Assembly (NCBI GenBank): GCA_050295575.1
Contig: JBNKPX010000004.1
Location: forward strand, 609-64,608
Source of the DNA: Gammaproteobacteria bacterium
GTDB lineage: Bacteria > Pseudomonadota > Gammaproteobacteria > GCA-001735895
Direction of reading: 5' to 3'
DNA length: 64,000 nucleotides
In this document: positions 1,944 through 26,252 of the stretch, piece by piece
Position numbering within the stretch: the first letter of the stretch is position 1
How the letters are laid out: every line of letters starts with the position of its first letter
The notes under the pieces: generated by a model
Seen by the model: only the letters and a program-made list of their open reading frames with translations
Database searches by the model: none
What the model was told of the DNA's origin: nothing
Position numbers and translations under genes: made by a program

Positions 1944-1972
1944 CTCTGCAACTTACGCGTTAAGTTGCAGAG
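1944..1972 (-). other. Intercistronic perfect hairpin (12-bp stem, CGCG loop) between the 14-heme cytochrome gene and the OM protein gene
   Basis: ctctgcaactta-cgcg-taagttgcagag is a perfect palindrome. It is followed on the minus strand by only a weakly T-rich tract, so it could be a partial terminator or an mRNA-stability element. Confidence 0.4.
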
Positions 1973-1987
1973 ACTATCCAGTCTGGT

Positions 1988-3166
1988 TTATCGATCCCAA
2001 TCAGAGTCTGTAACCCTATGGTGAGAACTATCCTGGTGGCAGGAGCCACTACAATCAGCATTTTCTGCCACAGTCTCGTAGCCACCACTACCATTCTCAT
2101 GTTCTCTCTGGTCATAATCTCCATCATGACAGGCCGCACATTGTGGTGCATAAGCTGTATTCCATGATGGTATTTCATTGTTGCTGCCGTGGCAGTCGAT
2201 GCAGGCTGCATTATCATGCCGTCCCCCAGTTGGAACATTTGAGCTACTATGCACATATGGTTTTGCAGTCCAGTTAACCGTGGTATGACAGACGTCACAG
2301 GCTTCAGTAGTAACGAAATGACCTGTTGACTGTCCTGTTGCCGACACACCATTGTGGCAACTTTCACAGGGTTCTCCTCCCACATCCGCATGACTCCATG
2401 TGCTGTTAGACCAACTGACAGTGGTGTGGCAATTCTCACACTCCAGGATGGTTAGCATATGGGTTGAGTGTTTTCCTTGTGCCAGAATACCATTATGACA
2501 GCTGGAACAATTTCCAATGACGGAGATATGATCAACTTTATACACAGGGTCAAAAGTAATGGTTGTGTGGCAATCTTCGCAGCTGTCGGTAGAAAGAATA
2601 TGATTGGTATTTTTAGGGGTTGCTATCACACCATTGTGGCAGAGCTGACAGTTACCGGTAATCCCTTCGTGATCAAACACGGCATCATGCCAGGAATTTG
2701 TACGATGACAGTTATCGCAGACATCACTACTTTCGATGTGTCCCGGGTGTTTACCGACCGCGACTATGCCATTATGGCAGCTTTGACATTCCCCAGTGAC
2801 GGCAAAGTGGTCAACCCTGGCGACGTTTTCCCAGTTGCCGGTCTGGTGACAAAACTCACAGTCATTGGTGGTTCTCATGTGTTTGGCTGAAGGTGCGCTG
2901 GCCTGGATACGCCCCGAGTTAGAATGGCAACCACTACACTGGGTAGGGGTCCCTCTAAAAACGCCCTGGATATGGCAGGAATCGCATTTTTCTCTGGCAT
3001 GTACGATATCTAACGGGAAGTTAGTTTCATCGTGATCAAATTTCGCAGCATTAGCGGTATTGAACATACCTGTAGACAAAAACAACGAAAGCAGTATAAA
3101 GGATAAAAGATTTAGCCAGTTTTTGCGCAAACCAGTGATATTTGTTTTAGCTATATTCATTATCAT
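1988..3166 (-). CDS. Multiheme cytochrome c (13 CxxCH + 1 CxxxCH), doubled-CXXCH repeat type, secreted
   Basis: I counted 13 CxxCH motifs plus a C-terminal CSGSCH. The module C.SCHNG..A.GK..H......C..CH.T..W recurs. The N-terminus has a hydrophobic signal sequence ending in ANA-AK. Confidence 0.9.
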   Translation of the reverse strand: MIMNIAKTNITGLRKNWLNLLSFILLSLFLSTGMFNTANAAKFDHDETNFPLDIVHAREKCDSCHIQGVFRGTPTQCSGCHSNSGRIQASAPSAKHMRTTNDCEFCHQTGNWENVARVDHFAVTGECQSCHNGIVAVGKHPGHIESSDVCDNCHRTNSWHDAVFDHEGITGNCQLCHNGVIATPKNTNHILSTDSCEDCHTTITFDPVYKVDHISVIGNCSSCHNGILAQGKHSTHMLTILECENCHTTVSWSNSTWSHADVGGEPCESCHNGVSATGQSTGHFVTTEACDVCHTTVNWTAKPYVHSSSNVPTGGRHDNAACIDCHGSNNEIPSWNTAYAPQCAACHDGDYDQREHENGSGGYETVAENADCSGSCHQDSSHHRVTDSDWDR

Positions 3167-3184: not shown

Positions 3185-4768
3185 TTAACTTCCAAATCTT
3201 CGGCTATTTATGTCGATTTCCTGGAAGTCATCGATGGAATGGCAGTCATCACAGTAAGGGCCAAAGTTTCCTTCGTGTATATCGTCCCGGTTGTGGCAGT
3301 CGATACAACGGCTTTTCATTTTTCTGTCTTTTTCCAGTGGCTTGAAATGGCAGGCGTGGCAATGCAGCCCTTCATGTGCACCTCTAATCTTGAAGTCGGT
3401 TTCGTCATGATCAAATTCCCAGATCAGCCAGTCGTTGGGGTTATGGCACAGTTTGCAATCATCACCGAAAGCTTTTTCATGTACATCGTCTTCACGATGG
3501 CAATTTATACACTCAGACTTGGCATCCTTAAATTCGGATGTCAAATGACAGGATTCACAACCAACGACGGCATGCTGGCCAATCAGGGGGAAATTAGTCA
3601 GTTCGTGATCGAAGCGAACGTCTTCCATCCACCATGATTTGTCATTATGACAGTTATTACATTTCTTACCCTGTTGTTCCTTATGAGCATCTTGATGTTT
3701 ATGACAGCTGTAACAGGCTTTGTCGGTTTTTTTACCTTTCTGATCGGACTGATGACAGGATTGGCAGCTGGCTTTTTTATGTGCACCCTTTAATGGGAAA
3801 TCCGTCTTTTTATTATGATCAAAGCTGGAGTCTAGCCAACTGGTTTCGTTATGACATTGATCGCATTTTTTCTTATTTTTACCTTTATGCACATCATCCA
3901 GTCGATGGCAGCTATAACAGTTTCGAGTTGTTTTTTTACCCTTAGGCTTTTTCTTTTTACTGTCGGCTACGGTATGGCAGGTATGACAGGTGGTCGCTTT
4001 ATGCTTACCCTTCAATTTGAAGTCCGTATCCTGGTCATGGTCAAATTTTGTCTTATCCCACTTTTTCTCTGTGTGGCAACTCTGACATTTTTTACCGAAT
4101 CGATTTTGGTGCACATCCTTGATGGCGTGGCATGAGACACATTTTTTAGGGGTGTCTTTGTACTGGTTTTCAACGTGGCATAGGTCGCAGGCTACTTTTT
4201 TATGTGCATGTTTTAACTTGAAGTCTGTCTTGTCATGGTCAAACTGCTCACTACTCCAGCCTTTGGGGTTGTGACAGCTGTCACATTTTTTTCCAAGATT
4301 GGTTTCATGGGCATCATCCTCTTCATGACAGGAAAAGCACTTATGTGGAGCCTCTCTATATTTTTTTTCTTCTTTATGACAGCTTGAGCACTCTGCCTGT
4401 GTATGCTTGCCTTCAAGCGGGTAATCGGTCGATTTATGATTAAAACGGTCCTTATCCAGCCATATGATGCTGGCATCTCTACCCTTATGTTCGGTATGAC
4501 AGACCCTGCACTCAACGCCAATGACCTGTTTATTTAAGCCATGAAAACCATGCTTTGAGTTTACATCGTCTGCTACCTCTTCATGGCAATCCAGGCAAAG
4601 TTGTCGCTGAGTCGTTTCCTGTAATCGGACATGACAACTTTCACATTTTAATTCATATTCTGCATGCCCTTCTATGACCTTGCCGGGCATGAATAGCTTT
4701 TCAAAGTCCATAGCCTGCGCCATTTGTGGTAGCAGGGTTATAAAAAACAACGTGAGTAATAACTTCAT
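3185..4768 (-). CDS. 21-heme cytochrome c built from seven triheme (cytochrome c7-like) modules, secreted, very Lys-rich
   Basis: I counted 21 CxxCH motifs. The unit FDH..TDF.L.G.H...C..CH...C..CH...D.H....G..C..CH recurs seven times. Signal peptide is MKLLLTLFFITLLPQMAQA. The start lies 3 nt after the stop of the upstream membrane-protein gene. Confidence 0.9.
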   Translation of the reverse strand: MKLLLTLFFITLLPQMAQAMDFEKLFMPGKVIEGHAEYELKCESCHVRLQETTQRQLCLDCHEEVADDVNSKHGFHGLNKQVIGVECRVCHTEHKGRDASIIWLDKDRFNHKSTDYPLEGKHTQAECSSCHKEEKKYREAPHKCFSCHEEDDAHETNLGKKCDSCHNPKGWSSEQFDHDKTDFKLKHAHKKVACDLCHVENQYKDTPKKCVSCHAIKDVHQNRFGKKCQSCHTEKKWDKTKFDHDQDTDFKLKGKHKATTCHTCHTVADSKKKKPKGKKTTRNCYSCHRLDDVHKGKNKKKCDQCHNETSWLDSSFDHNKKTDFPLKGAHKKASCQSCHQSDQKGKKTDKACYSCHKHQDAHKEQQGKKCNNCHNDKSWWMEDVRFDHELTNFPLIGQHAVVGCESCHLTSEFKDAKSECINCHREDDVHEKAFGDDCKLCHNPNDWLIWEFDHDETDFKIRGAHEGLHCHACHFKPLEKDRKMKSRCIDCHNRDDIHEGNFGPYCDDCHSIDDFQEIDINSRRFGS

Positions 4769-4771
4769 AGA

Positions 4772-5563
4772 CTAATAAAAATGAACGACTACAACGTGGG
4801 TTATACCAGATAGTACCAGCATGATGAAAAGTGGAAAATGCAGAATGTGCCAATAAGAGAATAGTATCTCATTAATACCCAGAGTGCAGATTGAGCGCAG
4901 CCCCCAGGCTCGATCCAGAAAGTTTCTGCGATCATCAGAAGGCTTATATTCGTTCAGTATCCTGGCTTTTAACTTTTTCAGCTTCCGGCGGTTTGAAATG
5001 TAAAACCAGAGAGATCGGTTTATCCCCGTATGCTGGACCACAAGATCGTCTTCAATTTTTTTCAACTCGGCAGAGAGTTCAGGGGTTTGCTGAGTAATAA
5101 CCTCGAATTCATGGGTTTCATTGTCAAAACTACGGTACAGGTCTTTAAAGCGAATTTTTCCACCATATAATCCATAGTGTATTCTACGATACAGGTAGCG
5201 GCCAATGAGCCCACTAGATGCAACAATAAGCATGCAGGTAAAGGCGACTGTGCCGTTTAGAGAACCCAGTCGGTAGCCAGAATGATAGATGATCAGTACG
5301 GGACCAAGGATGCCCAGAATCATGTGAAAACGAAACCAGAACTTTATAGAGCCAAGAAAGGTCCAGTTAGATTTCTGCTTTCGCAACGGGTAAACAAGCA
5401 GCAGCAGCATCATAGACCCGCCGATAATACCGAGCCAGTAACCAATGCCAGTTTCAGCCACAAAGTAATGATGGTCGGAGATTGTCCAGCCAAAATAGAT
5501 AACGGCTACTACACTGATGTACCAGAGTAGTGCAAGAGTATTAAGTGCGAATCGTATAACCAT
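4772..5563 (-). CDS. Integral membrane protein, candidate di-heme cytochrome b (ferric-reductase-like / cytochrome-b-like helix pair)
   Basis: About 5 hydrophobic helices. His80/His94 (FHMILGILGPVLIIYH) and His242/His256 (HFPLFIMLVLSGITH) are each spaced 14 residues apart on two helices, which is the classic bis-His two-heme spacing. A ~95-aa charged loop separates helices 4 and 5. Confidence 0.55.
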   Translation of the reverse strand: MVIRFALNTLALLWYISVVAVIYFGWTISDHHYFVAETGIGYWLGIIGGSMMLLLLVYPLRKQKSNWTFLGSIKFWFRFHMILGILGPVLIIYHSGYRLGSLNGTVAFTCMLIVASSGLIGRYLYRRIHYGLYGGKIRFKDLYRSFDNETHEFEVITQQTPELSAELKKIEDDLVVQHTGINRSLWFYISNRRKLKKLKARILNEYKPSDDRRNFLDRAWGLRSICTLGINEILFSYWHILHFPLFIMLVLSGITHVVVVHFY

Positions 5564-5707: not shown

Positions 5708-7009
5708 ATGGACACTATCTATTATTTTGTCCCTTTTATTCTATTCTTTCTTGGATATGTCTGGAGGGCGCATCGTCGTCAGCGACTGAACGAATTTGTT
5801 CGTCAGGAAGCTATTGAAACTGGCCTGGCTGAGCCTGCATCCTTACATCCCATTATTGATCGAAATAAATGCATAGGCTGTAAGTCCTGCGTTTATGTTT
5901 GCCCGCAGCAGCTTGGACATAACGTATTAGGCATCTTTCATGGCAAGGCTGAGTTACTTGAGCCTGCTAACTGCATAGGCCATGGTGCCTGTAAGAAGGT
6001 TTGCCCTGAAAATGCAATTACTCTTGTTTTTGGTACAGAGAAACGAGGTGTTGATATTCCCCTGGTCGATGATGACTTCGAAACCAATGTCAAAGGTATC
6101 TACATTGCGGGTGAATTGGGTGGTATGGGGCTGATCCGTAACGCTATCGAGCAGGGTAAGTCGGCGATGAAGTCAATTATTTCGTCCTTGCCAAAAAGTA
6201 GCAGTCATCAATATCAGGTGATCATAGTTGGAGCCGGCCCCGCAGGGCTTGCTTCTACGCTGGCTGCACAGGAGGCGAATCTAAAATACCTTGCTCTGGA
6301 TCAGGATTCTCTCGGCGGTACTGTTTTTCAGTACCCCAGAGGTAAAATTGTTATGACCCAGCCGGTCGACTTACCTATGGTTGGTAAGATGCATTTCAAG
6401 GAAACAACCAAGGAGGAGTTACTGGAATTCTGGCAAGGTGTTGAGCAAAAGACGGGTATTAAGGTTAGTTACCATGAGATTGTAGCTGGTGTAGAGACTT
6501 TGAATGGAGGGTTTAAGGTTAAGACTAACAAAGGTGAATATGAAACAGATACTGTGCTTCTCGCCATAGGTAGACGAGGTACTCCGCGTAAACTCGGTAT
6601 TCCTGGCGAGGAATTACCCAAGGTTGTGTATCGCCTGATTGACCCAGCACAGTATGCAAATCAAAAGGTTATGATAGTCGGGGGAGGTGATTCTGCCCTG
6701 GAAGCCGCATTAGCCATCGCTGATGAAGAAGGTAGTGAGGTTTCAATCTCCTACCGTAGTAATAGCTTTTCGCGTGCTAAAGCCAAAAATCGTGAACGGA
6801 TAGACAGCTATGCCAGTGAAGGAAAGATTACACTTTATCTCAGTTCAACCCCTAAGGAAGTCACTGAGCACAGTATTATTCTGAAATCAAATGATCAGGA
6901 TATAGAAGTTCCAAATGATGCTGTGATTATTAATGCAGGCGGCATCTTGCCAACGGGGTTTCTGAAACAGATTGGTATAGAAGTAGAGACCAAATTTGGA
7001 ACAGTTTAA
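5708..7009 (+). CDS. Membrane-anchored ferredoxin-domain / FAD-NAD(P)-binding pyridine nucleotide-disulfide-type oxidoreductase
   Basis: N-terminal TM helix followed by RAHRRQR. Fe-S motifs CIGCKSCVYVCP and CIGHGACKKVCP. Dinucleotide folds VIIVGAGPAGL and VMIVGGGDSALEAA. Transcribed divergently from the cytochrome operon. Confidence 0.8.
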   Translation: MDTIYYFVPFILFFLGYVWRAHRRQRLNEFVRQEAIETGLAEPASLHPIIDRNKCIGCKSCVYVCPQQLGHNVLGIFHGKAELLEPANCIGHGACKKVCPENAITLVFGTEKRGVDIPLVDDDFETNVKGIYIAGELGGMGLIRNAIEQGKSAMKSIISSLPKSSSHQYQVIIVGAGPAGLASTLAAQEANLKYLALDQDSLGGTVFQYPRGKIVMTQPVDLPMVGKMHFKETTKEELLEFWQGVEQKTGIKVSYHEIVAGVETLNGGFKVKTNKGEYETDTVLLAIGRRGTPRKLGIPGEELPKVVYRLIDPAQYANQKVMIVGGGDSALEAALAIADEEGSEVSISYRSNSFSRAKAKNRERIDSYASEGKITLYLSSTPKEVTEHSIILKSNDQDIEVPNDAVIINAGGILPTGFLKQIGIEVETKFGTV

Positions 7010-8985
7010 TGATTGACTTAAAGATATTAATAATTGCTTTTAGCCTGATTTTTATAATTACCCCGCCGTTACAGGCAGATAGTAAGCAGCAACTACAGGA
7101 TATTAGCCGATCGATACGTATCAGAGATTACAGCAAGGCTGTCAAGCAGCTGCAACCCCTGATCAGATCTGGTGATTCTGAAGCTCAATTCTTACTGGCA
7201 GGCCTGTACCGCTCAGGTAAAGGGGTGAAAAAGGATCTGGATAAAGCGATACAGCTGTATGAAAAATCCTCTAATAATGGGCATGCAGATGCTCAATATA
7301 CCCTGGCTTCCTTACTGGAAAAAAAGGGGGATATGACTCAGGCGTTATTCTGGTATCAGCAGGCTTCAGAGCAGGGGCATAGAAAAGCCCGGAAAAAACT
7401 GAAATCTGCCCAGAAGACTAGTGGATCATTTTGCAATAAAGATATTAATGCGGATGCCATATTTAGCTCGATTGTTCATAATGACATCAAGTTCATTCAA
7501 TCCTGTGTTGAGAATGGCTATAACTTTAATATTCAGGATAAGTCTTCTCGTTCACCACTTATAGCTGCTTTGCTAGCAGAGCATAAAGAGATTGCTGATC
7601 TATTGTTACCGGTTACACAAAACCTGAAACATGGTGACCAAAATAAGAATCAGGCTATTCATGTTGCCGCTTCAAACGGCTTTGCAGATATTGTTAAAAA
7701 GTTGCTCGATAAGAAAGTGGATATCAATGCACAGGATAACCTGGGCAATACACCGCTGTTAATTGCCGTGCGTCATGATGATGCGAAGCTAGCCCGCCTA
7801 CTTTTACAGAATAAAGCCAGTTACAGTTTACAAAATAAAAGAAAGGTTTCTGCCATAGAGTTGGCGCAAACCAGAGCTGATTCAGGCGTGTTAAAGGCTT
7901 TTTCCAGCCAGGGAATTAAGGTTGGTAAAAATGAGGATCAATATAACGATGTCAGTATTAAGGATTTTGAGAAATCTATAAAACAGTCGTCATCATTATA
8001 TAAAGGCTGGCCTATTTTAAGTATTGCCAGCCTGCTGGGTGAGAATGATATAGCCCGGCAATTGCTTAAACAGGGCGCTAAGGTTAATGCGGTGGATAGT
8101 TCTGGCTACGCTGCCCTGCATAGAGCGAGCGCTAAAGATCAGGTTAAAACAGTAGACCTGTTGCTTGCCTCCGGTGCGCTAATCAATAGTCAGAATAACA
8201 AAGATGAAACGCCTCTGTTTTTAGCTGCTGAAGCGGGTAGTTATAAAACGGTTAAGCGCTTACTTGAAAAAGGAGCTGATCCAACAATATTATCAGCGAA
8301 TAAAACGAGTGCTTTAGCTGTTGCCATAGCTAATCAGCGTAAGGATGTCGCCTTGTTGCTGGCTGAAAAAGAGCTGGATAATGATTCTATACACCTGGCA
8401 CTTTTCCTGGCTATCCAAAAAGATATGGAAGAGGTAGCTGTCAAGCTGGTAAAGCGTGATGCATTAATCAATGATGTGGATGGTAATAAACGTAGTGTTC
8501 TCTGGTTCAGTGCTGACAAGGGACTGGAAAAGATTACTGCCGCCTTATTATTAAATAAGTCTGTAGATATTGATCAGAAAGATGTAAAGGGTTACAGCCC
8601 TCTGGCCCGGTCAATTTTAAGGGGGCATAGTGTAGTTTCTAAATTATTAATTGGGGTTGGGGCGGATGTTAATACTCGAACGGCGGAAAAAAACACCCTG
8701 TTGATGCAATCGGTTCTATCAGGCAAAAAGGAAATGACAAAATTGCTTATCGATAAAAAAATCAATATAGATGCTAAAAATAACTCTGGTGAAACGGCCC
8801 TGATGTTAGCGGCGGGGGCAGGTAATAATGATCTGGTAGAAATACTGATTGAGGCGGGTGCTGATATACAGACAAGAAATCAGGATGACCTCAGTGCCTA
8901 TGAAATTGCATTAAATGCTGGAAAAAAAGATACCGCTGAGTTAATTCGTAATAAAAGCGGCAGGCTTTTTAAGCTGTTTAATTAG
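7009..8985 (+). CDS. Secreted Sel1-repeat + multi-ankyrin-repeat protein
   Basis: Signal peptide ending PPLQA-DS. Sel1-like AQFLLAGLYRSGKGVKKDLDKAIQLYEKSS and AQYTLASLL. Many ankyrin units (GNTPLLIAVRHDDAKLARLLL, ETPLFLAAEAGSYKTVKRLLEKGAD and others). The start overlaps the upstream stop (TAATG). Confidence 0.85.
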   Translation: MIDLKILIIAFSLIFIITPPLQADSKQQLQDISRSIRIRDYSKAVKQLQPLIRSGDSEAQFLLAGLYRSGKGVKKDLDKAIQLYEKSSNNGHADAQYTLASLLEKKGDMTQALFWYQQASEQGHRKARKKLKSAQKTSGSFCNKDINADAIFSSIVHNDIKFIQSCVENGYNFNIQDKSSRSPLIAALLAEHKEIADLLLPVTQNLKHGDQNKNQAIHVAASNGFADIVKKLLDKKVDINAQDNLGNTPLLIAVRHDDAKLARLLLQNKASYSLQNKRKVSAIELAQTRADSGVLKAFSSQGIKVGKNEDQYNDVSIKDFEKSIKQSSSLYKGWPILSIASLLGENDIARQLLKQGAKVNAVDSSGYAALHRASAKDQVKTVDLLLASGALINSQNNKDETPLFLAAEAGSYKTVKRLLEKGADPTILSANKTSALAVAIANQRKDVALLLAEKELDNDSIHLALFLAIQKDMEEVAVKLVKRDALINDVDGNKRSVLWFSADKGLEKITAALLLNKSVDIDQKDVKGYSPLARSILRGHSVVSKLLIGVGADVNTRTAEKNTLLMQSVLSGKKEMTKLLIDKKINIDAKNNSGETALMLAAGAGNNDLVEILIEAGADIQTRNQDDLSAYEIALNAGKKDTAELIRNKSGRLFKLFN

Positions 8986-21319: not shown

Positions 21320-22105
21320 ATGCAACGTATTCAAAAATTACTCGCCCATAATGGTGTTGGCTCTCGCCGTGAAATTGATCGATTTCTGCAGGAAGGCCGT
21401 ATCAAGGTAAATGGTAAGCTGGCAAAGCCTGGCGATCAGATCAGTGGTGGAGAGAAGATTACTCTGGATGACAAGCCGGTACGACTATCCCGGCATGAAA
21501 TCAAGCCAAAGATATTGATGTACCATAAACCCATCGGATTAGTGTGCACACGCTCGGATCCGGAAGGACGGCCAGATGTTTACAGCGATCTGCCCAGACT
21601 ACAGCAGGGGAGGTGGATTGGAATTGGTCGTCTGGATATCAATACCTCGGGATTGCTGTTGTTTACAAACCATGGTGAGCTGGCTAATCGCCTTATGCAT
21701 CCTTCATTTGAGCTGGAGCGTGAGTATGCGGCACGCGTACGCGGTCAGGTGACGGAAGATGCGCTTAAACTGCTCACCACTGGAATAGAATTGGACGATG
21801 GCCCTGCTAAATTTGATTCTGTCACTGATGGTGGTGGTGAGGGTACCAACCACTGGTATCACGTGGTGCTGCGTGAAGGACGTAACCGAGAGGTAAGACG
21901 CCTGTGGGAAGCGGTGGGTGTAGAGGTTAGTCGTCTGGTTCGAGTGCGCTACCATGAGTTTACCCTGCCCAAGTGGTTAAAACCTGGAAAAAGCCGCTTT
22001 CTTGAGGATACGACGGTTAAGAGACTGTTTGATTCTCTGCAGATAGATTACGATCATAAGGTTACTCAACACGACCTGAAACGTCGCCATGGTCGCAGGA
22101 AATAA
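21320..22105 (+). CDS. rluB: 23S rRNA pseudouridine synthase RluB
   Basis: S4 domain RIQKLLAHNGVGSRREID, catalytic GRLDINTSGLLLFTN, and a basic C-terminal tail. Confidence 0.85.
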   Translation: MQRIQKLLAHNGVGSRREIDRFLQEGRIKVNGKLAKPGDQISGGEKITLDDKPVRLSRHEIKPKILMYHKPIGLVCTRSDPEGRPDVYSDLPRLQQGRWIGIGRLDINTSGLLLFTNHGELANRLMHPSFELEREYAARVRGQVTEDALKLLTTGIELDDGPAKFDSVTDGGGEGTNHWYHVVLREGRNREVRRLWEAVGVEVSRLVRVRYHEFTLPKWLKPGKSRFLEDTTVKRLFDSLQIDYDHKVTQHDLKRRHGRRK

Positions 22106-22751
22106 TTCTTTTCAACAGGTTTATCTCAGACTTCATGAGCATTACGGGCATCAGCACTGGTGGCCTGCTGAGGATGAGTTTGAAATCATAATCGGTGCCA
22201 TCCTTACGCAAAACACCAACTGGAGCAATGTAGAAAAAGCGATCGATAATCTGAAGCAGCAGGGCTGTTGCAGTGCACATGCTCTGCTTGAACTGGAGCT
22301 GGAGCAACTCGCCCAGTTAATCCGTAGCTCTGGATATTTCAACCAGAAAGCTCGGCGTTTGAAAACTATTGCTGGCTGGTATCTGGAGCAGGGCGGCCTA
22401 AGCGGCTTAAGACAACTTGATCAGAGTGAATTAAGACGGCAATTACTCAGCCTGAATGGCGTGGGCGATGAAACTGCGGATGATATCTGCCTGTATGCCT
22501 TCAATCATCCTCTGTTTGTGATCGATGCCTATACCCGCAGACTATTCTCGCGCCTTTCTCTATTAAACTCCGAACATAGCTATAGCAGCTTGCAGCAGTT
22601 GTTCCACCAGCATTTACCGGCAGATGCGGCTTGCTATCAACAGTACCATGCGCTGATTGTCGAGCATGCGAAACAGCATTGTCGCAAGAAGCCGGTATGC
22701 GCTCTGTGCCCACTACAGGTATCATGCGAGTATGGTCAGTCGCTACACTAA
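22089..22751 (+). CDS. Endonuclease III-domain (HhH-GPD) protein with a C-terminal 4Fe-4S loop
   Basis: ILTQNTNW, the HhH-type LNGVGDETADDI, and the Cys cluster CRKKPVCALCPLQVSC. Confidence 0.8.
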   Translation: MVAGNNSFQQVYLRLHEHYGHQHWWPAEDEFEIIIGAILTQNTNWSNVEKAIDNLKQQGCCSAHALLELELEQLAQLIRSSGYFNQKARRLKTIAGWYLEQGGLSGLRQLDQSELRRQLLSLNGVGDETADDICLYAFNHPLFVIDAYTRRLFSRLSLLNSEHSYSSLQQLFHQHLPADAACYQQYHALIVEHAKQHCRKKPVCALCPLQVSCEYGQSLH

Positions 22752-23232
22752 AAAAACATCCACTCAAACGAGGAAAAAAGGCAAAAGTAGCCCGTTACAG
22801 GTATCCAGACTGTTTGGGAAGATTCTGCCTGATGGCTTCCAGGCCAAAACTGCCTTAATCAATCAATACCAGCATTTTTTCAATTCGCTAGATTCTGATG
22901 CGGTGTTTCAAATGGTAAGGGTGGTGAGTGTGGAAGCTAATATACTGACTGTTTCACTACCTTCAGCAGGGCTGGTGAATTATCTGCGCCTGCATACCCA
23001 GCAGATAAGTAGAGAAATTGAGCATCAATTTGGACAGTTGATGGCGTTGAAAATTATCTCTAGTCCAACAGGGGCTCAGAATGAAATGCCACGTCCTCGC
23101 TTAAAACCTGCGCCACATTTTTCTGCAGAGGTTAGCGATAAAATCAAGATATCAGCCAAAGGCATAGAGGATGATGAGCTAAAACAATCGTTGCTAAGAC
23201 TGGCCGATGCAATAAAGAAAAAGGATGGTTAA
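22732..23232 (+). CDS. DUF721 / DciA-like protein
   Basis: VVSVEANILTVSLPSAGLVNYLRLHTQQISREI resembles the DUF721 core. I chose the ATG at 22732. Recognition is from memory only. Confidence 0.45.
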   Translation: MVSRYTKKTSTQTRKKGKSSPLQVSRLFGKILPDGFQAKTALINQYQHFFNSLDSDAVFQMVRVVSVEANILTVSLPSAGLVNYLRLHTQQISREIEHQFGQLMALKIISSPTGAQNEMPRPRLKPAPHFSAEVSDKIKISAKGIEDDELKQSLLRLADAIKKKDG

Positions 23233-24317
23233 GTGTTTTTGCCGAGATAGGTGGTACGACGATCATTGTATATATCAGAATACAGATTGTTCTGAATGAT
23301 CTTGATCGCAGCCATGGCAGGGATGGCAAGGATGACCCCGATGGTACCAAACAGATTTCCAAAAATAATAATACCTACGATTGCGAGTACCGGGTGTAAA
23401 TCCACCGCATTGGCGATCACGGAGGGGATGACTACAACGTTATCCACTACCTGCGCCACAATTACTACGGCTATCGCCATATAAATCATTGCTGGGTCGA
23501 ATGGGGTTACTGCAGCGGCCACTATGGTGGCAAGAAACATTGAGATTAATGGGCCTATATAGGGAATCAGATTGAGTAGCCCCGTCAATGTGCCTAGTAA
23601 TACCGGCATATCCAGTCCGACAATAAAATAACCTGTCGTTGCTACCGCTGCCATGATGAAGGATTGAATCATGACTCCACGGGTATACAGGATGAGCTGA
23701 TGAGTTACTCGGTGGTAGATCAGCCAGCCCAGCTCAAAACTTGAATTAGGCAGCCAGTTGAGGGCTTTATTGCGTACCTGTTTAAAGTCCTTGAGGATGA
23801 AGTAGGTTAATAAAGGTACCAGAATGAGGCTAAGGGTAATGGCAAAAACCTGTTCTGATATTTTGAGCAGTAAATCATTACCCAATGATGATGACTGAGC
23901 AAGGATAGATACCACTATATCTGAAACATTAAATTCTATGCCTGTGATATCAGCGAATTTCTGACTGTACACATTTAACAGGCCTTCAAGGTGATTGAAG
24001 ATACCCGGCATTTTATTCTTCAGGAAGGCTGCCTGCTCCAGTAATTGGGGCAGAGCAAAACTAATGGCTAAAATACTGGCTGTTAGCATGAGGATCAGCA
24101 TGAAAATAATGGCGACTGAATGATTAATATTTTTGCGCACCAGATAATTGGTGAATGGCTTCAACAGTGCGTAGAGGGTAAAGGAAATAATGATAGGCAG
24201 TAATACGGATGAAAGTAGATAAAAGGCTGCTAGAACAATTCCTCCAATAACCGATAAAACTTTGAAGCTATCCAGATACGCCGAGCTGGCCTGATTGGTT
24301 TCAAGGTGATGTCCCAT
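23229..24317 (-). CDS. AI-2E family (PerM/YhhT-like) transporter
   Basis: Polytopic 362-aa protein with LLNLIPYIGPLIS and GVILAIPAMA, motifs typical of AI-2E permeases. Confidence 0.85.
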   Translation of the reverse strand: MGHHLETNQASSAYLDSFKVLSVIGGIVLAAFYLLSSVLLPIIISFTLYALLKPFTNYLVRKNINHSVAIIFMLILMLTASILAISFALPQLLEQAAFLKNKMPGIFNHLEGLLNVYSQKFADITGIEFNVSDIVVSILAQSSSLGNDLLLKISEQVFAITLSLILVPLLTYFILKDFKQVRNKALNWLPNSSFELGWLIYHRVTHQLILYTRGVMIQSFIMAAVATTGYFIVGLDMPVLLGTLTGLLNLIPYIGPLISMFLATIVAAAVTPFDPAMIYMAIAVVIVAQVVDNVVVIPSVIANAVDLHPVLAIVGIIIFGNLFGTIGVILAIPAMAAIKIIQNNLYSDIYNDRRTTYLGKNT

Positions 24318-24318
24318 G

Positions 24319-24810
24319 TTAGCGCCCAGCTTTATCGGCTAATAGCAGGTTAGCCTGATGTAGGCGCTGTGCCAGGGTAGAAGCAAGGTTTCTTAGAAAG
24401 ACCAACCCCAGATAATGCTCTACTTCAATCCATTCCTCGAGGTCCTGTTTCAAAAAAAATACCAGTCGGCAGTTTTTGGAGCAGACGGCATCGGCGGTCC
24501 GTTTGTCATTTTCAGCCAGTGCAATTTCACCAAAAAAGTCTCCCTGGTCGAGTACCGAAATTGGGGTGTCCAGTGCCATAATTTTTACCTGGCCTTCAAG
24601 AACCAGAACGACGCCAGCGCCCTGGTCACCTTCACGGAATACGATTTCATCCCGCTGATAGTTGCGGATATGCATGTTTTCGCTTAATGCGATAATGTGG
24701 CGCAGCGGGATATCCTTAAATAGCGGGGTATTGCTCCAGTAGTCTGCAATGGTGTTGATCTCGCTATCCTTTTGTTTGAACAGATTTGACCAGAAGAAAT
24801 TGTTCATCAA
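24319..24810 (-). CDS. Cyclic-nucleotide-binding domain protein
   Basis: The cNMP-binding beta-roll motifs GDQGAGVVLVLEGQV and GDFFGEIAL...RTADAV. Confidence 0.85.
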   Translation of the reverse strand: MMNNFFWSNLFKQKDSEINTIADYWSNTPLFKDIPLRHIIALSENMHIRNYQRDEIVFREGDQGAGVVLVLEGQVKIMALDTPISVLDQGDFFGEIALAENDKRTADAVCSKNCRLVFFLKQDLEEWIEVEHYLGLVFLRNLASTLAQRLHQANLLLADKAGR

Positions 24811-24890
24811 TATTTGCCGATTCTAAATAGCTAGCAGCATAGCAAAGCGTAAAACGGATTAACAATAAAGAAAGGGAAACAGGAGAATAA

Positions 24891-24927
24891 TTTTAAAGCT
24901 CACGAGTCAGTGTTAGTGACTCGTGAG
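24891..24927 (-). terminator. Hairpin downstream of tRNA-Asn
   Basis: 11-bp stem ctcacgagtca / tgactcgtgag, with a moderately T-rich tail on the minus strand. Confidence 0.5.
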
Positions 24928-24935
24928 TTTAGAGA

Positions 24936-25011
24936 TGGCTCCCCGGCCCGGGCTCGAACCAGGGACCCAATGATTAACAGTCATTTGCTCTACCAACTGA
25001 GCTACCGGGGA
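24936..25011 (-). tRNA. tRNA-Asn (GTT)
   Basis: Hand-folded cloverleaf: acceptor TCCCCGG/CCGGGGA, anticodon loop CTGTTAA, T arm CCTGG-TTCGAGC-CCGGG, encoded CCA. Confidence 0.95.
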
Positions 25012-25058
25012 ATTGCGGAGCGTATGGTAATGGAAAAGAAACCAATCAGCAATAGTAT

Positions 25059-26252
25059 TTAAATGTTTTTTTCAAAAACTTTTCCAATCCTTTGCAATGC
25101 CCTTTCAAGGTTCTGCATTGAGGTTGCAAAAGATAGTCTCATATAGCCTGGAGCGCCAAATGCTGAGCCCGGCACCACGGCAATACCTGCCGTGTCCAGT
25201 AGATGATTCGCTACAGCTACATCGTCCGCCAAATCAGGACGGCTATCGATAAATGATTGAATATTAGCAAAGCTGTAAAAGGTGCCATCAGAAGGTATAC
25301 ATTGAATATGAGCAATGGAGTTTAGCGTCTGCACCACATAATCATGACGCTGTTTGAAAGCAGCAAGCATATCCACAATGCAGTGTTGATCACCATTTAA
25401 AGCAGCTACGGCAGCGGCCTGGGAGATAGAGGCTGGATTTGAGGTGCTTTGCGACTGAATTTTTTTCATCGCCCGGATGATATCAACGGGTCCTGCTGCA
25501 TACCCTATACGCCATCCTGTCATAGAGTAGGCTTTGGATACGCCATTGAGTACCATGCAGCGATCATATAAGTCCGCATTTGCATTTAGAATATTGCTGA
25601 AGCCTTCATTATTCCAGATGATATGCTCGTACATATCGTCGCTAGCTATCAGGATTTCGGGGTGCTGGATTAATACGTCGGCAATGTCCTTTAATTCTTT
25701 GCGGGAATAGGCGATACCGGTGGGGTTGGAGGGGCTGTTAATAACCACTATACGGGTTTTAGGGGTGATAGCGGCCTGCAGTTTTTCGGCGCTCATTTTA
25801 AAACTTTCTGCTAACGTGGTTTCAACCACCACGGGTACTGCATCAGCCAGAAGTACCATGTCAGGATAAGAAACCCAGTAAGGGGCAGGGATGATGACTT
25901 CATCACCTTTATTCAGGTGTGCCTGACAAAGGTTGTAAAAGCTTTGCTTGCCGCCACTGGAAACCAGTATTTGCTCGGCTGTATAGTCGAGAACGTTGTC
26001 TCGTTTAAATTTATTAATAATCGCCTGTTTCAGTTCTGCTGTTCCATCAACGGCGGTATACTTGGTCTGGCCGTTATTAATGGCATCTATAGCTGCCTGT
26101 TTAATATGCTGCGGGGTATCGAAGTCGGGTTCGCCTGCGCCCAGCCCGATGACGTCACGTCCCTGAGCTCGAAGTTGACTGGCCAGGTTGGTCACTGCCA
26201 GGGTTGGGGAAGGTTTGATAGCATTGACACGGTCAGATAGTCGGTATTTCAA
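25059..26252 (-). CDS. PLP-dependent class I aminotransferase (aspartate/aromatic type)
   Basis: SKAYSMTGWRIGY (PLP lysine region), NPSNPTG, and 397 aa. Confidence 0.9.
   Translation of the reverse strand: MKYRLSDRVNAIKPSPTLAVTNLASQLRAQGRDVIGLGAGEPDFDTPQHIKQAAIDAINNGQTKYTAVDGTAELKQAIINKFKRDNVLDYTAEQILVSSGGKQSFYNLCQAHLNKGDEVIIPAPYWVSYPDMVLLADAVPVVVETTLAESFKMSAEKLQAAITPKTRIVVINSPSNPTGIAYSRKELKDIADVLIQHPEILIASDDMYEHIIWNNEGFSNILNANADLYDRCMVLNGVSKAYSMTGWRIGYAAGPVDIIRAMKKIQSQSTSNPASISQAAAVAALNGDQHCIVDMLAAFKQRHDYVVQTLNSIAHIQCIPSDGTFYSFANIQSFIDSRPDLADDVAVANHLLDTAGIAVVPGSAFGAPGYMRLSFATSMQNLERALQRIGKVFEKNI

Follow-up and report, generated by a model that had tools for sequence, protein, structure and literature searches.

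The 21-heme cytochrome gene and its cluster

We analyzed a 64,000-nt stretch of DNA (hereafter, the window; contig JBNKPX010000004.1 of assembly GCA_050295575.1, positions 609 to 64,608 of the forward strand) from an uncultured gammaproteobacterial metagenome-assembled genome, with the minus-strand gene at window positions 3185–4768 as the subject. This uninterrupted open reading frame of 527 codons encodes a c-type cytochrome with exactly 21 CxxCH heme-binding motifs, and its sequence identifies it as the periplasmic multiheme cytochrome (MHC) belonging to a PCC3 cluster, an ordinary member of a known, uncharacterized kind. PCC3 was described by He et al. (2017, Front Microbiol 8:1584, PMC5566968), who worked from genome sequences, and is proposed to conduct electrons across the cell envelope.

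The initial annotation, made from the letters of the DNA, had counted 21 CxxCH motifs in 527 residues, about one heme per 25 residues, and this count was exactly reproduced, at 25.1 residues per heme. By our own estimate, with Cys at ~1% and His at ~2%, ~0.001 CxxCH would be expected by chance in 527 residues, and all 42 Cys of the protein (42/42) lie inside the motifs. Residues 1–19 (MKLLLTLFFITLLPQMAQA, 4712–4768, minus strand) look by eye like a Sec signal peptide that has an AxA site but lacks a lipobox Cys, after which the sequence continues with MD; the product is therefore predicted to be soluble and periplasmic, with a mature chain of ~508 aa and a computed mass of ~59 kDa, or ~72 kDa with 21 hemes. 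Among its 49 His, 42 (six in each of the modules defined below) were invariant in an alignment of 70 21-heme homologues (52–88% identical). These comprise 21 proximal and 21 distal His, the number for bis-His ligation of 21 hemes, and therefore every heme can be bis-His ligated. No conserved Met was found among the 70 aligned 21-heme homologues, and the mature protein has only four Met.

The gene belongs to a row of four minus-strand genes in the order inner-membrane protein (IMP), 21-heme MHC, 14-heme MHC and outer-membrane protein (OMP), which are separated by gaps of 3, 18 and 71 nt. The stop codon of the IMP gene (263 aa, 4772–5563) is followed after 3 nt by the cytochrome start, and the protein carries WX3HX13H at residues 76 and 238 and SGxxG (as SGLIG) at residue 117, and five hydrophobic segments were judged in it by eye. 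For comparison, the IMP of PCC3 and PCC4 is defined by WX3HX13H in transmembrane helices (TM) 3 and 5 and SGxxG in TM4, within ~300 aa and five TM helices (He et al., 2017, PMC5566968). The second secreted MHC, the PCC3 ‘extracellular’ MHC (392 aa, 1988–3166), has 13 CxxCH and one CxxxCH. The OMP gene occupies positions 1–1916 and extends 201 nt beyond the window start, being complete on the contig at 705 aa; its product has SPOR and TPR matches in Pfam and an aromatic C-terminus (...YTYQF) typical of outer-membrane barrels, and is presumed to be an outer-membrane β-barrel.

A locus of Amphritea atlantica DSM 18887 (L075), recovered by a profile scan of species-representative genomes, encodes cytochromes with 21 and 63 CxxCH, matching the figures printed for A. 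atlantica in He et al. (2017), and has counterparts of all four proteins. The two 21-heme proteins are colinear and 48% identical (E 1e-172), the IMPs are 34% identical (E 2e-48), the OMP and the A. atlantica PCC3 porin are 29% identical (E 5e-84), and the second cytochrome matches the C-terminal part of the 63-heme protein at 45% identity and its N-terminal part at 42% (E 9e-89). Based on the IMP motifs, the homology of the four proteins, the gene order and the heme count, the cluster was therefore assigned to PCC3. In PCC3, the periplasmic MHC carries a median of 21 hemes with few residues per heme (He et al., 2017, PMC5566968); for Gallionellaceae, 21, 24 or 27 hemes were reported, along with a long, linear model and the proposal that the protein spans the periplasm (Hoover 2023, PMC9900912). 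Published examples of PCC3 include A. atlantica DSM 18887, Sideroxydans lithotrophicus ES-1 and Leptothrix cholodnii SP-6, together with ‘MMseqs2 cluster 20’ of Hoover 2023. The window cluster shares with the PCC3 of He et al. (2017) the four genes, the 21 hemes, the ~25 residues per heme and the IMP motifs, and differs from it in nothing essential; its extracellular partner is short, with 14 hemes versus a reported median of 34, and its host is an uncultured bacterium in whose 74%-complete assembly neither RuBisCO nor dsrA was detected.

Some local features of the cluster were also observed. No Shine-Dalgarno-like sequence was seen before the cytochrome ATG (4766–4776, minus strand), and the position of the IMP stop TAG 3 nt upstream suggests that the IMP and the 21-heme protein are translationally coupled. 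The 71 nt that separate the second cytochrome gene from the OMP gene include a hairpin with a 12-bp stem (1944–1972, minus strand), which is overlapped by a promoter-like TTAACG-18-TATAAT (10/12 matches); at this site, either an attenuator or an internal promoter may set the stoichiometry of the porin. The 14-heme cytochrome (1988–3166, minus strand) aligns with both ends of the 63-heme protein of A. atlantica (L075:8540–13285), and it seems to be the number of internal doubled-CxxCH repeats that distinguishes extracellular PCC3 cytochromes from one another, with 5–63 motifs across loci.

Triheme modules and their relation to c7 cytochromes

Splitting the protein at each third heme motif yielded seven units of 66–84 residues, which start at about residues 20, 101, 168, 235, 309, 378 and 444. 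An alignment of modules 2–7 from eight family members gave the consensus W-x4-FDHD-x-TDF-x-L-x-G-x-H-x4-CxxCH-x11/12-CxxCH-xxDDVH-x4-G-xx-CxxCH-N, and within the 21-heme protein modules 2–7 are 37–48% identical to module 3, in agreement with the seven-copy repeat proposed by the initial annotation. On the minus strand, the sequence division together with the module alignment places the triheme repeats of module 2 (residues 101–167) at 4268–4468, module 3 (168–234) at 4067–4267 and module 5 (309–377) at 3638–3844. Module 1 (residues 20–100, 4469–4711) is a variant triheme unit without FDH, in which an additional His follows the third heme motif (H35, C42, C58, H76, C87, H94), and it is N-terminal in all longer homologues. 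Module 4 (residues 235–308, 3845–4066; net charge +12) is the module least conserved in sequence, while the division and a charge count mark module 6 (residues 378–443, 3440–3637) and module 7 with the C-terminal tail (residues 444–527, 3188–3439) as acidic triheme repeats, each with a net charge of −8; module 7 is also C-terminal in longer homologues.

By sequence, these repeats belong to the class III (c3/c7) multiheme superfamily. The initial annotation had gone further and described c7-type modules as in GSU1996, which raises the alternative that the protein is a true member of the Geobacter c7 polymers (GSU1996, GSU0592, GSU2210) with seven homologous c7 domains. In line with this, Pfam Cytochrome_C7 (PF14522) matched the whole protein at 77.3 bits over five stretches (cut-off 24.8), next to 63 bits for Cytochrom_c3_2; GSU1996 (PDB 3OV0) was the top PDB match of the module profile (E 1.5e-5) and also the top, non-significant, Foldseek match; and BLASTP aligned PpcA in a shifted register, including its H20, H47 and three CxxCH (E 6e-4). 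However, the curated models for Geobacter-type c7 stayed below their thresholds, with ≤20 bits versus 40 for TIGR04257 (nanowire_3heme) and 11 versus 120 for CytC7_Geobact (NF043011). The ligand order also differs: the modules read H,H,C,C,H,C, whereas PpcA reads H,H,C,H,C,C (H17, H20, C27, H47, C51, C65), and no rotation gives the c7 order. Moreover, a His-Met heme is absent here, whereas each GSU1996 domain has one (PMC10138318). Membership in the c7 polymers is therefore improbable, and of the earlier description the superfamily relationship stands, with the 77-bit Pfam match and 3OV0 as best PDB match, whereas the Geobacter-type c7 identity is weakly supported.

The profile comparisons give a similarly mixed picture. 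Individual GSU1996 domains reached ≤15 bits against the module profile, with ActA, STC, the nine-heme cytochrome, NrfH and c3 following closely, and PpcA reached an E-value of 0.5–1.5 only. When single units were scanned with Pfam in three registers, the c7 model fitted best, and over its full length, in units starting at DDxH (24.4, 30.4 and 23.9 bits), each of which joins heme three of a module to hemes one and two of the module that follows; the register of the initial annotation gave 15.8, 21.0 and 15.8 bits against the same cut-off of 24.8. Aligning the modules to PpcA, as had been suggested for a check, thus produced a weak match in the shifted register, but the hhalign probability between the module profile and PpcA was 66.6% and the ligand order differs. 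A phmmer search of the whole protein against PDB sequences returned nothing at E ≤0.01, Foldseek of the full-length AlphaFold2 model (pLDDT 66) returned only 6HR0 (E 8), and nothing in the fold searches was significant.

Among characterized cytochromes, GSU1996 (PDB 3OV0) and GSU2210 resemble the 21-heme protein in being one periplasmic polypeptide of tandem triheme units from the same Pfam family and clan; they differ in that here all hemes would be bis-His and the gene lies in a porin-cytochrome operon, while GSU1996 has one His-Met heme per domain (PMC10138318). The array is not longer than those known, since GSU2210 has 27 hemes (PMC10138318) and relatives found here have up to 39. PpcA (PDB 1OS6/2LDO) shares the three bis-His hemes in ~70 residues and the richness in Lys. 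The small tetraheme cytochrome STC/CctA of Shewanella (PDB 1M1P, 6HR0) shares the order H, CxxCH, CxxCH, D-x-H, CxxCH over three hemes and scored 17–20 bits per domain against the module profile, with marginal E-values; it is, however, a single 91-aa tetraheme shuttle, and its model NF047727 gave 16 bits versus 180 for the 21-heme protein. Membership in two further families was ruled out, namely the DmsE-family decahemes MtrA/MtoA (TIGR03508, 17.4 bits versus a cut-off of 192) and the HmcA hexadecahemes (NF045713, 30.5 bits versus a cut-off of 400).

Lysine content and charge pattern

Lys makes up 13.5% of the 21-heme protein. In its genome, long frames (stop-to-stop, ≥250 aa) have a median of 4.7% Lys, and only 0.1% of them attain the content of this protein. 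Within the family of the cytochrome, the protein stands at the 88th percentile for K and the 75th for K+R, so that the richness in lysine pointed out by the initial annotation is extreme against its own genome and ordinary among its relatives. In total, K+R (16.7%) is balanced by D+E (16.9%), with a pI of 7.26. Across the family, K and R are inversely correlated (r = −0.66), a trade-off as expected from genome composition. PpcA, whose sequence was verified as identical to 1OS6_A, contains 24% Lys, and basic residues around the hemes appear to be a trait of the c3/c7 class that would offset the 42 propionate charges of the 21-heme protein.

Module 4 contains the polybasic strings SKKKKPKGKKTTR (residues 271–283) and KGKNKKK (residues 295–301). 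The polybasic loop that separates heme 10 from heme 11 (residues 266–283, TVADSKKKKPKGKKTTRN; 3920–3973, minus strand) varies in length and sequence among the 70 homologues, and in the segment 261–306, which includes this KKKKPKGKKTTR loop, the number of K/R ranges from 4 to 15. At the level of whole modules the pattern is more regular: among 21-heme homologues, 90% have a net positive charge on module 4 (mean +7.5, versus +12 here), 100% a net negative charge on module 6 and 94% one on module 7. A basic module at a fixed distance from one end at all lengths was ruled out, as relatives with 8–13 modules are mildly basic throughout.

The polybasic stretches had been taken as an unusual feature that binds an anionic partner, such as polysulfide, polyphosphate, nucleic acid or envelope polymers, as the special function of the protein. 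The recurrence of the basic module 4 and the acidic modules 6 and 7 among 21-heme homologues speaks for this idea, as does the peptidoglycan-binding SPOR domain of the OMP in the cluster. Nevertheless, the loop is conserved in neither sequence nor length, and a polyanion-binding function is therefore not indicated by it; the charge pattern of the 21-heme clade is absent from the 8–13-module relatives; the balance between K and R shifts with genome composition; basic residues near hemes are general in c3/c7 cytochromes, including PpcA, and here would offset the propionate charges; and the overall pI is close to neutral. We consequently regard polyanion binding as highly improbable, and the stretches lose the unusual status first given to them.

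A proposed heme wire across the periplasm

Synteny was counted by a uniform script with simple motif heuristics in 71 related loci. A periplasmic MHC with 21 CxxCH was found in 69 of the 71, the IMP lay directly upstream of the 21-heme gene in 63 of 69 loci, and a second MHC, with 5–63 motifs, lay downstream in 53 of 59; the same gene order recurs in L001, L003, L006, L007, L074 and L075. Among the 120 best homologues, heme counts of 21 (69 proteins), 24 (18), 27 (18), 30 (3), 33 (6), 36 (3) and 39 (1) were observed, with 21 as the mode and only two proteins departing from multiples of three. In the longer relatives, modules 1–2 and 6–7 are kept at the ends and the added modules are central. 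A fixed number of 21 hemes and conserved ends fit a spacer with two specialized docking ends.

The 21-heme protein is thus probably a heme wire that bridges the IMP and the outer-membrane porin-cytochrome across the periplasm. The initial annotation had likewise proposed a heme wire, which is plausible and has already been published for this family (PMC5566968, PMC9900912). We infer the heme loading, rod shape, length, docking partners and direction of electron flow as follows. After Sec export, hemes would be attached by the Ccm system of the genome, in which cytochrome c maturation genes are present, giving a 508-aa protein with 21 bis-His hemes. Its seven tandem triheme modules would form an elongated chain of closely packed hemes of ~20 nm, a length scaled from GSU1996 and MtrA. 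GSU1996 reportedly measures ~12 nm for 12 hemes. The decaheme MtrA measures ~10 nm (cited in He et al., 2017, PMC5566968). One end of the chain would dock on the IMP encoded 3 nt upstream, which is di-heme-b-like, and the other would dock on or insert into the 705-aa OMP, which would also hold the 14-heme extracellular cytochrome, so that electrons could cross the whole periplasm inside one polypeptide. This arrangement resembles that of MtrA/MtoA in MtrCAB/MtoAB, in that a heme wire on the periplasmic side is proposed to be joined to or sheathed by an outer-membrane barrel beside an extracellular MHC. In contrast, the 21-heme protein has twice the hemes of MtrA/MtoA and would need no shuttle to reach the inner membrane, and its inner-membrane partner is a NOX/FRD-like di-heme protein rather than CymA.

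Alternatively, the protein could store electrons in the periplasm as a capacitor or carry them as a mobile shuttle, with the 21 hemes buffering fluctuating donors or acceptors. GSU1996-type ‘nanowire’ cytochromes are thought to be capacitors (PMC10138318), such a role has also been raised for PCC3 (Hoover 2023, PMC9900912), and the 21-heme protein has no membrane anchor. This is nevertheless unlikely, because the heme number is fixed at 21 in nearly all loci (69/71) while that of the partner spans 5–63 and the end modules are conserved around an extensible middle, both of which are more readily expected of a spacer with a defined length than of a store, and because the 3-nt gap points to tight coupling with the IMP gene. 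A more elaborate form of the heme wire would be a polar molecular ruler, a 21-heme rod of seven modules with a charge pattern of a basic module 4 and acidic modules 6 and 7. Module 4, together with the SPOR-containing OMP, would pin the wire where it passes through peptidoglycan, so that the conduit would be static, with its orientation and register both defined, and would receive electrons from a NOX-like module in the inner membrane; we offer this as speculation and think it quite unlikely to be correct.

Several points weigh against a heme wire that spans the periplasm. The contacts with the IMP and the porin are drawn from gene order, and the OMP is a presumed β-barrel. The full-length AlphaFold model is weak (pLDDT 66, pTM 0.31), and models are built without hemes. 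The cluster is accessory, with a patchy distribution even within the genus: it was found in 8 of 13 congeneric genomes, 3 of 11 genomes of other genera in the family and 2 of 16 of other families. Finally, PCC3 was called ‘functionally unverified’ as of 2025, with experimental work on none of its components.

With regard to the direction of electron flow through the proposed heme wire, we lean toward the export of cytoplasmic reducing equivalents, with uptake from Fe(II) or other donors as the alternative. All-bis-His hemes are typically low-potential, and this leaning is based on the all-bis-His set, the conserved neighboring FeS flavoprotein described below and a host genome that encodes two heme-copper oxidases but has no detected RuBisCO or dsrA. 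Neither the RuBisCO large subunit nor dsrA was found in the assembly, which is only 74% complete, and a lithoautotrophic sulfur- or iron-oxidizing host was set aside as far as this incompleteness allows.

The window copy adds no new principle, and its interest is that of its kind. PCC3 is among the most widespread uncharacterized candidate systems for extracellular electron transfer: a scan of the species-representative genome set located relatives of the cytochrome on at least 547 stretches, >6,000 metagenome protein clusters contain them as well, and their taxa include Gamma-, Alpha- and Betaproteobacteria, Nitrospirota, Myxococcota and others. If a single polypeptide does wire the inner membrane up with the outer one, it would be a solution unlike the shuttle-based Mtr and Pcc systems. 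The family offers experimental handles in its triheme modularity, its all-bis-His ligation, its conserved ends with an extensible center, and its constant 21 hemes against a variable partner. In the accessible parts of He et al. (2017) and Hoover 2023, we met no discussion of the triheme module grammar, the all-bis-His set or the charge polarity.

Additional cytochrome genes were observed in related DNA. In one congeneric genome (G001), the 21-heme gene occurs at C21:28574–30154, C159:2412–3992 and C341:6–743, each 88–90% identical to the window copy, so that the copy number there is two or three, compared with zero in 5 of 13 congeners; given its estimated contamination of 6%, the copies could reflect strain mixing. 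Outside the window, contig C27 of the host genome (G000) carries a second giant cytochrome of 1244 aa with 38 CxxCH (21609–25343, minus strand), a T/S/G-rich lipoprotein (lipobox ...VAGC) with CxxCHNG...GK motifs like those of the PCC3 extracellular MHC; it adjoins a gene for an 893-aa lipoprotein, and neither an IMP nor a 21-heme gene was found nearby.

Next to the cluster, on the plus strand, lies a divergently oriented gene for a membrane-anchored flavoprotein with 2x[4Fe-4S] (5708–7009; Pyr_redox_3 in Pfam), and a membrane-anchored FeS flavoprotein gene was present within 6 kb in 57 of the 71 related loci. Its stop overlaps the start of a co-transcribed gene for a Sel1/ankyrin-repeat protein with a signal peptide (7009–8985, plus strand; Pfam). 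The pair of flavoprotein and Sel1/ankyrin-repeat protein accompanies PCC3 even at distant loci, among them those of Thermodesulfobacteriota (L026), Emcibacter (L045) and Thiotrichales (L074).

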